13,936 nt of DNA. Source: a virus. The notes below the pieces were generated by a model. The model searched no databases and had not been told where the DNA came from. It was given only the letters and a program-made list of their open reading frames with translations. Below, one piece after another: positions 8,353 through 13,775 of the stretch; the stretch's first letter is position 1, and each line of letters begins with the position of its first letter. Location: UHGV virus genome UHGV-0300571; one strand, given 5' to 3'. The position numbers and the translations under genes are program-made.

Positions 8353-9768
8353 TTACATCGGGTGAACAGCATCGCCGTCAATAGCGATTACGTCGTCACT
8401 TTCCAGCTTGCGTAACCAGCGACTAAAGTGCTTCATCTCATACCCCAGCTTTTTCATATCATCGCGCAACAACGGAATTGTGCATTTATCGCCGCGCTGT
8501 GTGCGTGAACGGATACAGCCCCATAGTGCGGCATGATTTTCCGTCTTGTTCCCGGCTTCCTCGATGCGTTCCAGTTCAACGGGTGGGCGCGGCTTATCCA
8601 CAACCACCAGTGACGTGATTAACTCCCCGTCAGTGTCGGTAAAAAGCTCCACCACGCGTAAATCATATGCAGCCTCTTTCAGTTCCTCCGCGTCCTTCAT
8701 TTTGGTGCAGGAGATAACCAGGGCTTCACTGTCTGCACCTTCACGGCGAATACGGTATTCAGCGTCCAGAGATGCACGAAATGCACTGGAACCACGCGCC
8801 CCCTTTGTTTCATCCTTGCCGGAATGGTGAACCACCAGTACCGTGGCCCCTGTGCGTCGTTTCAGTTCGTCACATCCACGGATAAACGCCCCCATATCCC
8901 GCGCGTCATTTTCATCATTACCGCCAAAGCAACGCGCCAGCGTATCCAGAATAATCATGCGTACCGGTTTACCCGTTTCCCGTTCAACCTGGCGGGAAGC
9001 GATGACCATTTCATCAACATCAAGCGGGGCTGCCGGAAAAATCGGGCGGTTTACCAGGTACAGATTTTTCACCCGTTCATCATTAACGATTTCCCATGCC
9101 TTGATACGGCGGGGGACACCAATGCCACCTTCACCGACAACATACATCACCGAACCATGCGCAACCCTGCGGCCTCCCCAGTGGCGCCCCGTGGCAACAT
9201 GACACGCCCAGGAACACGCGAGGAATGATTTATAGGAACCGCTCGCGCCGTATGTGCTGCACAACGAATTAGCCGGAATCACGCCCTTAACGACATAATC
9301 AAGCTGTGTGTCGTACCCTGTAGATCCAATACTCATTGGTAGCGTGGTTTTTCGCTGGCTGTATTGCTCGTCAGTAAGTATTTCCCCGCGCTCTGCCTGT
9401 TCGCGGATCCGTTGCAGGTAGTCGTGCCAGTTCTCCAGCTTCTGGCTGTGCATTCCCTCAGGGTAATAATTCGCATCCCGTACACCTGCCGCCGCCAGCT
9501 TTTGCCCGATGGCATTAATATTTGACGGCTTGATGTGGCCTGCCTTGTATAGCCGGACACAATAGCGACCATCGTCGATGATTTTCAGGTCTGCCAGTTC
9601 GTCAAGCTGGCTGTCTCCAAGCCATACAGGTGGCACGTTGTCGCCAGCAAGTCGTCCGTCCTGTTCCTGCCACTGTTTCGCGTGCGCCCAGGCATCACTA
9701 CCCGCAAAAATAATGACTTCGGTCATTTTGTCGTGTGGCTGTTTTTTTAAGTTCGGTGCCAGTTTCAT
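8353..9768 (-). CDS. Replication initiator: N-terminal primase/origin-binding-like region fused to a RecA/DnaB-like (AAA_25-type) ATPase
   Basis: 471 aa. Walker-A-like YGASGSYKSFLA, the motif ...VLVVHHSGKDETKG... and MIILDTLARCFGG, consistent with RepA/DnaB-like helicase loaders of satellite and PICI replication modules. ATG at 9766-9768 overlaps the upstream stop. The iteron origin is directly downstream. Confidence 0.8.
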   Translation of the reverse strand: MKLAPNLKKQPHDKMTEVIIFAGSDAWAHAKQWQEQDGRLAGDNVPPVWLGDSQLDELADLKIIDDGRYCVRLYKAGHIKPSNINAIGQKLAAAGVRDANYYPEGMHSQKLENWHDYLQRIREQAERGEILTDEQYSQRKTTLPMSIGSTGYDTQLDYVVKGVIPANSLCSTYGASGSYKSFLACSWACHVATGRHWGGRRVAHGSVMYVVGEGGIGVPRRIKAWEIVNDERVKNLYLVNRPIFPAAPLDVDEMVIASRQVERETGKPVRMIILDTLARCFGGNDENDARDMGAFIRGCDELKRRTGATVLVVHHSGKDETKGARGSSAFRASLDAEYRIRREGADSEALVISCTKMKDAEELKEAAYDLRVVELFTDTDGELITSLVVVDKPRPPVELERIEEAGNKTENHAALWGCIRSRTQRGDKCTIPLLRDDMKKLGYEMKHFSRWLRKLESDDVIAIDGDAVHPM

Positions 9769-10505: not shown

Positions 10506-10737
10506 AACCCCCCCCATTTTCACAATCAGCAATCAGGATGGCTTTAGCCTCATTCAGTGCCATATCAGCACTAAGTTGCATTACAGCCAGTGAATGAGGA
10601 ACGAAAGCCCCGGCATATTCTGTTTCGCTGGTGGCGTGCTTATGCGCCTTGTCTGCGATAACAGAAATATCAATCAGCGCGTGCATCAGCGTTTTGATGG
10701 CTTCGGCGGCTGCGTCCGGACGGGTGTTATTGCACAT
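10498..10737 (-). CDS. Hypothetical small protein (79 aa)
   Basis: ATG at 10735-10737 overlapping the stop of the upstream gene (ATGTGCAATAA). A G8 run lies in its 3' end (plus 10508-10515). Confidence 0.45.
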   Translation of the reverse strand: MCNNTRPDAAAEAIKTLMHALIDISVIADKAHKHATSETEYAGAFVPHSLAVMQLSADMALNEAKAILIADCENGGGYA

Positions 10738-10933
10738 GGCGCACCCCCTGACGAATACGGGCGGCGAATACCATCACACAGCCAGCCGGGGATTGCTGGC
10801 GTGCTTCCTGTTCGCTGGTGGCCTCAATGGTAATCACGCGCGGCTGTGCCGTGCTCAGGGCGATAAAACGCCAGATGTATTTACTCAGGTTGTGCGAGTC
10901 CCGCCCTTGCGGGTGTGTGGTATGATTTAACAT
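10727..10933 (-). CDS. Hypothetical small protein (68 aa), first gene of the minus-strand early operon
   Basis: ATG at 10931-10933 with GAGGT 5 nt upstream. It is the only well-initiated portion of an otherwise implausible 394-aa track ORF. Confidence 0.4.
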   Translation of the reverse strand: MLNHTTHPQGRDSHNLSKYIWRFIALSTAQPRVITIEATSEQEARQQSPAGCVMVFAARIRQGVRHVQ

Positions 10934-11030
10934 AGCTACCTCGATACTTCTGCTATCGTTGGTGGTTAGAAGCCCCGTTACTGCTCCAACAGTGCGGGGT
11001 TTCGTCGTTTCTGTGCCTTGCATTAACAAG

Positions 11031-11111
11031 GTGTAAGACACAATGTAAAATACAAGTGTCTTACACGTCAAGCCTTCAAAATAATTTTTTTTCGTGTATA
11101 TTGTCTTACAC
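11031..11111. promoter_or_regulatory. Divergent promoter/operator region with three GTGT-N3-ACAC operator-like sites
   Basis: GTGTAAGACAC (11031-11041) and its exact reverse complement GTGTCTTACAC (11056-11066), plus TTGTCTTACAC (11101-11111) overlapping a putative -10 (TATATT, 11097-11102) of the plus-strand RHH-like gene. A candidate -35 TTCAAA is at 11075-11080. On the minus strand a possible TTGACG -35 lies at 11067-11072. Confidence 0.5.
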
Positions 11112-11132
11112 CAACAACATAAGGAGTTAGAC

Positions 11133-11312
11133 ATGGCAACAGGTCCAAAGAATGCAAAATCACAATCTGTAACTGCACGTATTGCCCATGAAATTATTGA
11201 AGGCATGGAAAACGTGAAAGAAGAAGGCGAAAGTACAGGGCAGTTTATAAGTGCAGCCATGCGCGGCGAGATCAAACGCCGCCAGCGCCGCAAGGCCAAA
11301 GAGCAGGAGTAA
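11133..11312 (+). CDS. Small DNA-binding protein, ribbon-helix-helix-like (candidate repressor)
   Basis: Strong RBS AAGGAG 7 nt upstream of ATG 11133. The 59-aa product has an RHH-like layout: a beta-strand segment (SQSVTARI), helix A, a G-x-S/T turn (GESTG), helix B, and a basic tail. It is divergent from the early operon and adjacent to the palindromic operators. Confidence 0.5.
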   Translation: MATGPKNAKSQSVTARIAHEIIEGMENVKEEGESTGQFISAAMRGEIKRRQRRKAKEQE

Positions 11313-11369
11313 CCATCACCAGCGCCGTGGTGCGGTGAACTGTGGCGCACAGGGTTACAGGTATCTACG

Positions 11370-11567
11370 ATGACTGACAAATCATTAAAGAAATTATCCT
11401 CATCCAGGAAAAAACAACGCAAAAACGCGGTAAGAGAACATGAACAGGAAAGATTCGCGCCATGTGCGTTTGTCCTTGAAAAGTTCCTTAAAGAGTACAG
11501 GCGCACAAAAATGGGATCGCATGCCTGGAAAACATCGCAGCATGGCGATACTAAAGAGCAGGAATAG
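11370..11567 (+). CDS. Hypothetical basic small protein (65 aa), uncertain
   Basis: ATG at 11370 with only a weak AGG upstream. Very basic product. Followed by an intrinsic terminator at 11670-11699. Confidence 0.3.
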   Translation: MTDKSLKKLSSSRKKQRKNAVREHEQERFAPCAFVLEKFLKEYRRTKMGSHAWKTSQHGDTKEQE

Positions 11568-11669
11568 CCCACCAGCAAGCCAGCGCACTGATCACATTGC
11601 CAACCGGATGTAATCACGGCATAGTAATCAGCGCTTATGCGTTGGGGATAACGTGTAGCTTGTGTTGAA

Positions 11670-11699
11670 GGGCCACCGTAGCGGGTGGCCTTTGTTTTG
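11670..11699 (+). terminator. Rho-independent terminator
   Basis: GGCCACC-GTAGCG-GGTGGCC followed by TTTGTTTTG. Confidence 0.65.
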
Positions 11700-11751
11700 C
11701 CTGTTATCCGGCAATTGTGGCGCTTCGCTACACGGTTGATATAATCCCCCT

Positions 11752-11822
11752 GCACTGATCCAATTTTTTCGCAGCAGGTTAATTGTTCAGAAAGGCGGCT
11801 CCATTTCGGGGCCGCTTTTTTT
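11752..11822 (+). ncRNA. Candidate small RNA (~70 nt), convergent with alpA
   Basis: Extended -10 TGATATAAT at 11737-11745 (with a weak -35 TTGTGG at 11715-11720), then about 45 nt, then a strong intrinsic terminator GGCGGCUCC-AUUU-CGGGGCCGC + U7 (11794-11822). No ORF with an RBS in this interval. Confidence 0.3.
11794..11822 (+). terminator. Rho-independent terminator, possibly bidirectional
   Basis: An 8-bp stem with one G-U pair plus TTTTTTT on the plus strand. On the minus strand the same hairpin is followed by CTTTC, so it could also end the alpA transcript. Confidence 0.7.
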
Positions 11823-11963
11823 ATGCCTGAAAAACCACAATTTTGTTGTTTTCCAGTCTCACCAGGACGAGCGAAGCCCCGCCCCTGTTCGGGCGTATAT
11901 CCAGTCTTCATGGTTAGATCTCTGTATTAGTGGATGGGTGGCGGCTGTGTGCCGCCAGCCTGA

Positions 11964-12152
11964 TTAGTGAACTGCCTCGCAGCTGTCTTTCCATGCCAGA
12001 ACTTCGGATAAAGACCAGCCAACGGAACGACCGCCGAGCTTACGCCGTGATGGGAATTGTCCGGTTTTTTCCAGGCGGTAGCGACATGAGCGGCTCAGGC
12101 CTGTAAGTTGTTGGCATTCTTTTTCACGAATAAAGCGATCTGTGCTTAACAC
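11964..12152 (-). CDS. alpA: AlpA-family (Xis/excisionase-like, winged-helix) transcriptional regulator
   Basis: 62 aa. The motif ...QQLTGLSRSCRYRLEKTGQFPSRRKLGGRSVGWSLSEVLAW... matches the AlpA/phage-excisionase signature. GTG start at 12150-12152 with GGGGGA 6 nt upstream; there is no internal Met. Confidence 0.85.
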   Translation of the reverse strand: MLSTDRFIREKECQQLTGLSRSCRYRLEKTGQFPSRRKLGGRSVGWSLSEVLAWKDSCEAVH

Positions 12153-12441
12153 AAGAATCCCCCTTTGTTGTTTCTTAAAGCGTCATTGGGTGGCTTATTG
12201 GGTTGAGTTGCGTCAGATTGTGTCAGGGGGATTGGGAGTTGGCAAACACTGGTGTGGTGTTCGTCGCTGAAACAGGAGTAATGAGAATAAAAACTCTTTT
12301 AATTCATTGTGATGTAGTAGCGTAAAATTCTGTTTTTACGCCTTTTTTACATGTTTTTAAGAGTGATTCGCCAATGTACAAAAAGCCAGTAAAACGACTG
12401 AAAATCAACTTTTTAGGGTGTCGGTCAGATGATAATCAAGT

Positions 12442-12497
12442 TTGTTCCAGATTGTTCGCCGTTGTTCGTCGTGGTGTCTCGTTGTTTCACGTTGTGT
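12442..12497 (+). promoter_or_regulatory. TTGTTC direct repeats phased at 10 bp (three perfect, two degenerate) in the int-alpA spacer
   Basis: TTGTTC at 12442-12447, 12452-12457 and 12462-12467, then TTGTTT at 12482 and TTGTGT at 12492 in the same phase. Located 30-80 bp from the int stop in a 370-bp intergenic region. Confidence 0.5.
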
Positions 12498-12522
12498 CCG
12501 TTCTGAAAAATCGCAAAAAAAA

Positions 12523-13752
12523 TTATATTTCTCTGGCTATTGGCAGTGTGGTTACGTTTTCGTGAGTACCTGCCAGTATCTCTAACCGCTCTGTCCACAT
12601 GTCCAGCGCATTACGTTTCGCATCGAGATAACGGGAGTGGTTATAGACTCGCTGCATCCCTGGCATCTGGTGAGCGGTGAGTTGTTCGACAATATGCGGA
12701 TCCACGCCTAAATCGTTCAGCATTGTGGTAAACGTGCGCCGTATATCGTGCAGGGACCAGTGAGGATGGTTTAATTTTTTGTGCGTAAATCTGCCGTATT
12801 GTGACACGCTGGCTTCCTGTTTCAGTTCCCCGAGTAATAACCCTGTGTGCCTGTTCTGCTCCACCAGCTGCGTGACGAACGGCAAAATGCTTTCCGGTAT
12901 TGGCCTGAATATGGCGACCTTCGTTTTGCTGTGTTCTTTCGGTACCGTCCAGAGCATTTCCTTAAAATCCCACTCCCTGATCTCCGACAGCCTCAGTTCT
13001 CCGGTTCGGCAGCCAAACACAATCAGGAGGCGGATTAGTGCGCTGTAGTAGGGCGGGAATATTTTTTTATCCAGCGCCTGTAATAATTCGCTCAGTTCTT
13101 TGTTGCTCAGCACGCGTTCGCTTATGCCCGGCTTTTTGCCAACGTCCACCACGTTGAGATCATCCAGAACGTTACTGACTGCGTAGCGACGTTTACGGCA
13201 GAACTTAAGCGCCTGTTTACACGCCTGCATCATGTGACCAGACGTTACGGGGGATTTTTTGCGTATCCGGTCAAAACAGGCCAGCCAGTGACGCAACTCG
13301 CATTTATCCAGTGGCATATTGCCAATATGCTGTATGACGTGATTATTCAGGCGGCTTTTCAGGGAGACGTAATCGACACGGTTTTCCTTTACGTGCATTT
13401 CCAGCCAGTAGCTGATCGCATCACCCACCGTTACCGGCTTTAGTGCTTCCTGTATGGAGTAATTAAGCTCATGGCGTGGATTTTTTCCCTCTGCCAGCCA
13501 TGCGCGACACTGTGCTGCTTTTTCTCTGGCTGCTTTCAGGCTCAGATCAGGATAATTTCCCAGCTTCAGGCGTTCCGGTGATACCTGGCGTCCTGTTCCT
13601 GCCCTGTAGGTGAAATACCAGGTTAACAGGCCGCTGGTGGAGTGTCTGATACTCAGGTTTCCACCGTCATTAAGAAATGTGGTTTTTGGGGCTGGTGTGC
13701 CGTTGATTTTTCTTAGCTGTGTATCGCTCAGTTTGTTAAGTGCTCTGCTCAT
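12523..13752 (-). CDS. int: Tyrosine site-specific integrase (P4-like family)
   Basis: Arm-binding-like N-terminal domain (...LSDTQLRKINGTPAPKTTFLNDGGNLSIRHSTSGLLTWYFTYR...) and a C-terminal catalytic region with ...HDIRRTF...HQMPGMQRVYNHSRY... (catalytic Tyr context). Start is uncertain: ATG at 13750-13752 is preferred, with in-frame ATG at 13770 and GTG at 13773 as alternatives. Confidence 0.9.
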   Translation of the reverse strand: MSRALNKLSDTQLRKINGTPAPKTTFLNDGGNLSIRHSTSGLLTWYFTYRAGTGRQVSPERLKLGNYPDLSLKAAREKAAQCRAWLAEGKNPRHELNYSIQEALKPVTVGDAISYWLEMHVKENRVDYVSLKSRLNNHVIQHIGNMPLDKCELRHWLACFDRIRKKSPVTSGHMMQACKQALKFCRKRRYAVSNVLDDLNVVDVGKKPGISERVLSNKELSELLQALDKKIFPPYYSALIRLLIVFGCRTGELRLSEIREWDFKEMLWTVPKEHSKTKVAIFRPIPESILPFVTQLVEQNRHTGLLLGELKQEASVSQYGRFTHKKLNHPHWSLHDIRRTFTTMLNDLGVDPHIVEQLTAHQMPGMQRVYNHSRYLDAKRNALDMWTERLEILAGTHENVTTLPIAREI

Positions 13753-13775
13753 AATTTTGAATCCGGTCATCACAA

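Follow-up and report, generated by a model that had tools for sequence, protein, structure and literature searches.

A candidate cis-antisense RNA gene opposite the eta-like reading frame behind alpA in a capsid-forming phage satellite of Escherichia coli

What holds an AlpA-dependent phage satellite silent until a helper phage induces it? Induction of phage-inducible chromosomal islands (PICIs) in Gram-negative bacteria requires alpA, and a negative counterpart has long been sought; the paper on capsid-forming PICIs (cf-PICIs) does not use the word 'repressor', and the EcCIMP1 paper yielded no island repressor either. A short locus in the virus genome UHGV-0300571 bears on this question. This stretch of 13,936 nt, which we call the window, is by its gene content a cf-PICI, a phage satellite, of Escherichia coli. 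A preliminary description made from the sequence alone proposed a self-contained small-RNA gene convergent with the PICI activator gene alpA (11964-12152, - strand; PF05930, E = 2.7e-18). We find strong comparative support for such a gene, with a predicted transcript, in selection on its -10 element, compensatory changes in its terminator, a fixed T-tract polarity and an architecture shared among relatives. The decisive context, missed by that description, is that the predicted RNA lies antisense to a conserved open reading frame (ORF) resembling eta of satellite P4. We regard the RNA as a candidate for the satellite's missing off-switch.

The proposed unit consists of a promoter, a short body and a terminator on the + strand. 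Read from the sequence, the extended -10 of the candidate RNA, TGATATAAT (promoter P2), lies at 11737-11745; TGNTATAAT occurs once in the window when both strands are checked, with 0.28 occurrences expected by chance. At a distance of 49 nt from the extended -10 stands the hairpin of the intrinsic terminator T2 (11795-11822), which is supported by the sequence, by RNAfold and by covariation. Its arms GCGGCTCC (11795-11802) and GGGGCCGC (11808-11815) enclose the loop ATTTC (11803-11807) and form 8 pairs, one of which is U.G, followed by T7 at 11816-11822. An extended -10 followed by a GC-rich stem and a T7 tract had been described here, and both elements are present. A consensus terminator scan of the window missed the hairpin at 11795-11822, though sequence and RNAfold show it; the scan presumably stretched the stem into the neighboring A/T runs and thereby consumed the T tail, and we do not take its omission as evidence of absence. 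With an inferred start at G11752 and an end inside T7, sequence and fold together predict an RNA of ~65-71 nt (11752-11822). The 71-nt form folds at -25.4 kcal/mol, compared with -14.5 +/- 2.6 kcal/mol for shuffled sequences (RNAfold, z = -4.25). As an extended -10 promoter of the sigma-70 type, P2 is expected to be constitutive.

Direct reading of the sequence revealed no plausible + strand ORF in the unit. The earlier statement that no credible ORF is present therefore holds for the + strand and fails for the minus strand, where an ORF of 394 codons (10727-11911) spans the unit. Three further features of the unit were considered and dropped: a conserved 5′ hairpin in the RNA body, as minimum free energy folds vary among variants; a small + strand peptide, as ATG-led frames are inconsistent among variants; and an operator-like palindrome, GTGGCG-CTT-CGCCAC, 5′ of the -10, as the palindrome is not conserved.

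To follow the unit among relatives we used three sets of homologous loci. The first comprises 46 IMG/VR loci found through a pattern of the RNA body and is biased toward that body; the second comprises 69 loci (70 with the window) found through the AlpA protein alone and is free of ascertainment for the RNA unit; the third comprises 80 loci found through the YlcI protein alone. Sampling was mostly of Escherichia and Shigella. Species-representative genomes were covered by one scan with an overly degenerate pattern, CGCAGYRGGTTANNTGTTC, in which only Shigella flexneri matched the window by BLAST and the other hits were chance-like, so that the range beyond Escherichia/Shigella is poorly sampled. 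The unit was detected by motif in 67 of the 70 AlpA-anchored loci. The other three are of an AntA type without the motif and carry a near-identical 266-aa ORF for the antirepressor AntA after alpA; in L184, the locus inspected for these three, a promoter and terminator scan placed the unit, with the same hairpin, directly after full-length antA.

Conservation within the unit is sharply focused on its signals. Among 39 distinct type A units, divergence of the extended -10 is 0.006 per site compared with 0.131 in the 40 nt upstream and 0.141 in the 23 nt downstream, making the element ~20-fold less variable than its flanks. The hairpin occurs as three alleles, and 227 of 232 cells (98%) pair when read on the + strand vs 197 of 232 when read on the - strand, the latter figure being lower because a constant U.G turns into C/A. 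In two cases both partners of a pair have changed in compensation (C-G to U-A; C-G to A-U), and U.G intermediates occur, with all these counts uncorrected for phylogeny; covariation of the terminator stem, which had been suggested as a check, is thus found in the homologues. The polarity of the T-tract is also fixed, lying on the + strand 3′ side in every homologue. Immediately 3′ of the T-tract the sequence switches among at least four unrelated modules, with the junction exactly at the end of the terminator, and the unit therefore behaves as a discrete module.

The 3′ part of the body, CGCAGCAGGTTAATTGTTCAGAAA (11770-11793, + strand, from the alignments), is common to type A units and to the type B units of O157 strains, in which the 5′ bodies are unrelated. 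Conservation of this 3′ body is partly ascertained in the pattern-derived set and is seen in the AlpA-anchored set too. By our reading of the alignments its variants (GCAGCGGGTTATCTGTTC, GCAGTAGG.. and ..AATCGTTC) are mostly non-synonymous in the minus-strand frame, arguing that conservation acts at the nucleotide level. Taken together, the comparisons indicate that the unit is probably a genuine short transcription unit, a promoter-to-terminator module under selection.

Type B units show how the module can be rebuilt. Their promoter, TTGCCC-17-TATCAT, lies at the same aligned place as the type A extended -10 and is followed by a different 5′ body, while the 3′ body and terminator of type A are kept. 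The homologue of the 65-codon ORF upstream of the unit in the window (orf65), an ORF missing in some relatives, stops just 5′ of the type B promoter. Since no terminator separates the upstream ORF from the type B unit, the unit is predicted to form the 3′ end of that ORF's transcript as well. The small-RNA proposal had been said to be refuted if the region were simply the 3′ untranslated region of the upstream genes; this description fits the O157 type in part, except that a promoter of its own is kept there. Carriers of type B include Sp7 of strain Sakai, which fits the description of the prototype cf-PICI EcCIEDL933 and has its homologue on the minus strand of NC_002695.2 at 1596820-1596902, inside ECs_1576.

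More distant elements, with AlpA proteins 57-67% identical, have a unit of the same layout at the same place with unrelated bodies. In this layout a -35 of the form TTG[ACT]CCACCAGC is separated by 17 nt from a -10, and the 30-80 nt body that comes next is followed by a GC hairpin and TTTGTTTT. In L256 and L287 the promoter of the unit is the only promoter-like site in the 600-750 nt scanned around the ylcI-alpA interval, and the analogous terminators of L256, L287 and L184 were recognised by the scan. By these comparisons the predicted unit is a member of a family found in the AlpA-type PICIs of Escherichia/Shigella and in more distant elements carrying AlpA and YlcI. The motif TTG[ACT]CCACCAGC is itself kept across element classes whose surroundings differ (L256 2573-2584, L287 2417-2428, and a relic at 11597-11607 in the window) and reads 'AGGQ' in the antisense ORF. 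It may represent more than a -35 hexamer, for example the binding site of a regulator.

The window has a second unit, or the relic of one, immediately upstream. The promoter and terminator scan identified at 11597-11701 (+ strand) a weak promoter, TTGCCA-17-CATAGT (11597-11625), a body of ~40 nt and a terminator T1, with a stem at 11668-11693 followed by TTTGTTTTG; the fold of 11632-11701 has z = -3.25. This is the separate upstream terminator that had been reported, and it is predicted to terminate the ylcI-orf65 transcript as well. On inspection, T1 and its GCTTATG..TTGGGGAT body are similar both to the 5′ body of type B and to the units of the distant elements. The O157-type unit has the look of a hybrid, in which the promoter and 5′ body would come from the upstream unit and the 3′ body and terminator from the downstream one; this suggests a history of tandem duplication or deletion.

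What, then, does the RNA face on the other strand? In P4, eta lies behind the alpA homologue and includes the immunity region, and its end is in frame with kil (PMC10111431). The 394-codon ORF of the window (10727-11911, - strand, from the ORF listing) is laid out in the same manner: it begins 52 nt past the alpA stop and ends in frame with a small Icd-like gene, the Icd-like domain (NF033153) forming its residues 345-388. It is antisense to the RNA unit, to T1 and T2, to orf65 and to ylcI, and we propose it as the target. The RNA faces its codons 30-53 with full complementarity, the mRNA itself being inferred. The frame of this ORF contains 0 stops in the window compared with 16-18 in the other two frames. 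In most of 65 distinct relatives no stop interrupts the long frame before the Icd-like gene, vs 12-28 stops in the other two frames, and the long frame survives mosaic modules and indels of 12 and 156 nt. In ~2/3 of the loci that have an Icd-like match the long ORF is in frame with it, and in most of the remaining ones it stops 20-35 nt short of the Icd-like start. This pattern holds across AlpA classes of 35-98% identity. The encoded protein has no family match outside its Icd-like C-terminus and is not conserved between classes. From these frame comparisons, selection appears to act on the openness of the long frame.

Where the RNA meets this ORF differs between the window and other architectures. 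Throughout the family the units are antisense to the 5′-proximal part of the long ORF behind alpA, or behind antA in elements that have it. In four other architectures a distance of 5-25 nt separates the RNA T-tract from the long ORF's ATG, placing the RNA antisense to the first 20-25 codons of that ORF. The starts of these ORFs read MNITKSAPLPERP in L236, MTNTKKAAP in L292, and MAHKTKAT / MAQKTKAT behind the Shine-Dalgarno sequence GGGGGAG in L287 and L256; in L184 the long ORF overlaps the stop of full-length antA. Relatives carry antA at the position after alpA. In the window the first ~17 codons of the long ORF (MKTGYTPEQGRGF...) are the N-terminus of antA, and the next residues, 'IKKAAPKWSRLSEQ', match the start of the L292 ORF. 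The window thus looks like the product of a deletion that fused a remnant of antA to the front of the long ORF, which would account for the position of the RNA at codons 30-53.

How might an RNA at this position act? Translation of P4 eta reportedly averts termination, which allows read-through from the late promoter (Forti et al. 1999). By analogy, transcripts from the alpA promoter would reach the operon of icd, replication and packaging genes only if ribosomes on the eta-like ORF shielded the RNA from Rho. The + strand RNA would pair with the beginning of the eta-like ORF in these transcripts, in most classes within a few codons of its start, and pairing would block initiation or trigger cleavage, with the initiation block applying where the site is near the start codon. 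In the window, cleavage or collision of convergent polymerases could take the place of an initiation block. Transcription would then lose its coupling to translation, and leaky RNA from the alpA promoter would be terminated, presumably by Rho; C-rich, G-poor stretches of the minus strand beyond the pairing site, 11719-11603 and 11277-11174, are weakly compatible with Rho utilization (rut) sites. The island, with its Icd, replication and packaging genes, would remain silent until helper-induced, AlpA-amplified transcription overrode the RNA and occluded the convergent promoter. We favour this explanation, in which the unit at 11737-11822 is a self-contained gene for a predicted short non-coding RNA with a specific cis-antisense, anti-read-through mechanism, and consider it a serious possibility that falls somewhat short of being probable. 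A broader proposal is more tentative, and we think it rather doubtful as a whole. Under it, the negative regulator long sought for AlpA-type PICIs and cf-PICIs of Gram-negative bacteria, their 'immunity', would be a family of constitutive cis-antisense RNAs. These would lie within the 5′ end of an eta-like ORF that serves solely to be translated, and would block that translation so that Rho aborts leaky transcripts from the alpA promoter.

Several observations weigh against this explanation. The pairing site in the window lies 89 nt past the start codon, where translating ribosomes can unwind duplexes; a direct initiation block is therefore inapplicable here, and cleavage or transcriptional interference has to be invoked. 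The anti-polarity role of the eta-like ORF in PICIs is itself carried over from P4, and a terminator would be equally needed just to halt + strand transcription before alpA. Some relatives have immunity RNAs of the C4/isrK type, so that the antisense RNA would not be the only RNA regulator of the family. The RNA is also absent from the list of orphan small RNAs (sRNAs) obtained for O157 Sakai by cross-linking and analysis of cDNA (CRAC) with Hfq, a list that may omit sites antisense to annotated ORFs, and it has no entry in the supplements of the study of RNase E by cross-linking, ligation and sequencing of hybrids (CLASH).

Short cis-antisense RNAs with their own promoter and terminator are a well-known kind of object in temperate elements. 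A search of the literature on PICIs, cf-PICIs, sRNAs of enterohaemorrhagic E. coli and YlcI/YnfO found no description of it. The closest parallels come from temperate phages. Lambda OOP is a 77-nt antisense RNA to the cII mRNA, made from a constitutive promoter, ended by a strong intrinsic terminator and thought to act by pairing and cleavage. Like OOP, the predicted RNA is short, has its own promoter and terminator, converges on the transcript of a developmental regulator and is fully complementary to it. The two have no sequence relation, and OOP overlaps the 3′ end of cII, whereas the window RNA overlaps the 5′ part of the ORF after alpA and belongs to a satellite, not a phage. The sar RNA of the P22 immI region is antisense to the arc-ant junction and the ribosome binding site of ant. 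It too is a small cis-antisense RNA aimed at the translation start of the next ORF, in an immunity region with ribbon-helix-helix-type repressors and an antirepressor gene, and relatives of the window have antA at the corresponding place. Unlike sar, to which it is not homologous, the window RNA faces no antirepressor gene but an eta-like ORF, the product of which probably does not matter, and the ribbon-helix-helix nature of YlcI is presumptive.

The comparison with P4 is closer in logic than in kinship. As in P4, an alpA/vis homologue is followed by a long ORF in frame with a small Icd/kil-like gene. Translation of the long ORF would be required for read-through into the replication operon, and an RNA encoded inside that ORF would determine whether transcripts go on. 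However, P4 CI is encoded on the operon's own strand, is processed from the operon leader and acts on seqA/seqC, whereas the window RNA lies opposite to the alpA/icd/rep strand, has its own promoter and terminator, shows no C4/isrK similarity and has no target boxes above shuffled sequences elsewhere in the window. Its targets would be transcripts of the alpA (late-type) promoter, a class that CI leaves unaffected in P4. The suggested analogy to CI thus stands as to regulatory logic and place and falls as to descent. If the broader proposal is true, the RNAs would be a convergent, antisense re-invention of P4 RNA immunity, acting on the class of transcripts that escapes CI in P4; the anti-read-through mechanism, if it holds, would be a new variant of P4-type immunity. 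A conserved antisense RNA at the point where alpA transcripts pass to the replication and packaging genes would be a concrete candidate for the missing brake. As the prototype EcCIEDL933 (Sakai Sp7) has a homologue, the proposal concerns an established system with known helper phages, HK106 and HK446, and cf-PICIs move between species.

The RNA could instead act in trans. Under this alternative it would be an Hfq-dependent sRNA whose single-stranded 3′ body, GCAGCAGGUUAAUUGUUCA, pairs with mRNAs of the host or the helper phage, for example in sensing or tuning the helper, with its antisense position being incidental. The anatomy is Hfq-like: the body is short and unstructured, and it comes with a U-rich stretch, a GC hairpin with a tail of seven or more U, and an ARN-like AGAAAG before the hairpin. 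That type A and type B share the 3′ body despite their different 5′ bodies also speaks for this alternative, and prophage-encoded trans sRNAs are frequent in pathogenic E. coli according to the literature. Among these the AgvB, AsxR, Esr41 and Pas RNAs, trans-acting and Hfq-dependent, are encoded by lambdoid prophages or SpLE1; they resemble the window RNA as short (50-80 nt) RNAs of E. coli mobile elements with a Rho-independent terminator, but none maps to the cf-PICI, and the EcOnc table has no entry at the Sakai Sp7 coordinates. Esr41 was rejected as the identity of the RNA since it sits on SpLE1, and EcOnc33 (~71 nt) since it sits in the lambdoid Sp6.

Target searches did not favour a trans-acting role. 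Complementarity of the body to leader regions of alpA, rep or the helper phage had been proposed as a line of inquiry. Elsewhere in the 13.9-kb element the best non-self duplex was within the range of shuffled sequences and 9-12-mers were at chance level, and the RNA sequence was not found in the phage collection. Four E. coli matches in the plasmid collection were uninformative. The distant elements keep the position and architecture of the unit, not the sequence of its body, which favours a cis target, since such a target co-evolves automatically, and the Hfq-bound orphan sRNAs listed for Sakai do not include this RNA. We therefore consider a trans-acting sRNA unlikely.

A second alternative, which we rate as equally improbable, is that the tandem terminators T1 and T2 form a boundary element that shields alpA and int from + strand transcription of the ylcI operon. 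The RNA would be a by-product, and any regulation would arise from polymerase collision or promoter occlusion. Such a role is consistent with two serial + strand terminators just before a convergent gene, with the type B unit doubling as the 3′ end of the upstream ORF's transcript, with the mosaic junction falling exactly at the terminator and with the distance of the window pairing site from the ribosome binding site. A backup terminator, however, needs no promoter of its own 45-60 nt upstream, but all architectures have one, and purifying selection on the extended -10 is strong. Termination alone would likewise not predict that the 3′ end of the RNA lies beside the start codon of the long ORF in the other classes.

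It is far less likely that conservation of the unit reflects a minus-strand feature, either the protein of the 394-codon ORF or a hairpin in its mRNA, with the + strand signals being coincidental. The ORF is real as a conserved open frame and is annotated in part by the annotation pipeline PGAP, which labels pieces of it 'Icd-like pseudogene' or 'hypothetical protein', and as ECs_1576 in Sakai. Yet the protein lacks a family match beyond its Icd-like C-terminus and differs between classes, most variants within the conserved core change the encoded residue, + strand pairing of the hairpin is the better one and the T-run polarity is fixed, and the 9-nt extended -10 is far more conserved than the adjacent codons. 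The comparisons show that the long ORFs labelled 'hypothetical' or 'Icd-like pseudogene' in these islands are a conserved open frame; opposite to it lie real genes and the predicted RNA gene, a point of relevance to annotation.

Known RNA families offer no better identity. Rfam gave no family match, either at the gathering threshold over the whole window or at E<=10 over 10900-12600, and chance-level matches on the terminators to ctRNA_p42d, isrD, P34 and STnc50 (20 bits vs a cutoff of 55) were rejected. The zone from alpA to the replication genes has been named the 'Bro zone' and can contain CI-type immunity RNAs (PMC10111431). A diverged homologue of the P4 CI / P1 C4 immunity RNA is barely conceivable, despite its occupying the same zone as P4 CI and despite C4/isrK matches in relatives. 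The covariance-model test refuted homology, with C4 (RF01695 of clan CL00128) and isrK/seqA (RF01394) matching neither in the whole window at the gathering score nor in 10900-12600 at E<=10. The relatives' matches lie elsewhere, between ylcI and icd on the other strand, and the RNA is a unit with a promoter and terminator of its own, not a product processed from an operon leader. The same models score 69-80 bits in L236 and L312, at that different site: C4 and isrK RNAs lie between ylcI and the Icd-like gene at 1433-1618 (-) in L236 and 1494-1678 (-) in L312, alongside the antisense unit. The corresponding interval of the window gave no C4/isrK RNA.

The genes around the unit agree with those described before. 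The YlcI/YnfO-family gene ylcI (11133-11312, + strand, 59 codons; NF041551, E = 1.2e-18) is the first of a + strand unit divergent from the Icd-like operon and has a ribosome binding site, AAGGAG, 6 nt 5′ of its ATG. It is followed by the 65-codon orf65 (11370-11567, + strand, from the ORF listing), which has no family match and is called as a gene on contigs with the same element, and alpA lies beyond the unit. The Icd-like (kil-like) gene (10727-10933, - strand, 68 codons; NF033153, E = 2.6e-18) is nested in and in frame with the 394-codon ORF; in E. coli relatives and in same-element contigs it is a separate coding sequence of 68-69 residues. Also on the minus strand are a RepA-like helicase (8353-9768), a tyrosine integrase (12523-13773) and genes for DUF4222, SSB, PerC, capsid, protease, portal, HNH and terminase proteins. 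In contigs with an identical helicase the element adjoins ilvL/ilvG. The nearest E. coli chromosomes are 83-93% identical over the stretch from alpA to the Icd-like gene and are mosaic.

The divergent promoter region between ylcI and the Icd-like gene contains three copies of the 11-bp sequence GTGTAAGACAC (11030-11041, 11056-11066 and 11102-11112), two of which form a perfect inverted repeat 14 nt apart. The copies overlap promoter-like sites at 11023-11051 (+), 11075-11102 (+) and 11071-11042 (-). The repeats have the appearance of switch operators, to which the YlcI-family protein or AlpA might bind. Two further repeats lie between the RNA terminator and alpA. An imperfect inverted repeat, CTGAAAAACCACAA/TTGTTGTTTTCCAG, is located at 11828-11857, between the terminator and the ATG of the long ORF; it is found in relatives of the same class and showed up as a reverse BLAST match. 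At 11940-11956, 8 nt past the alpA stop, we observed a perfect 6-bp hairpin, GGCGGC-TGTGT-GCCGCC, which has no T-run on either strand and is identical in five aligned relatives.

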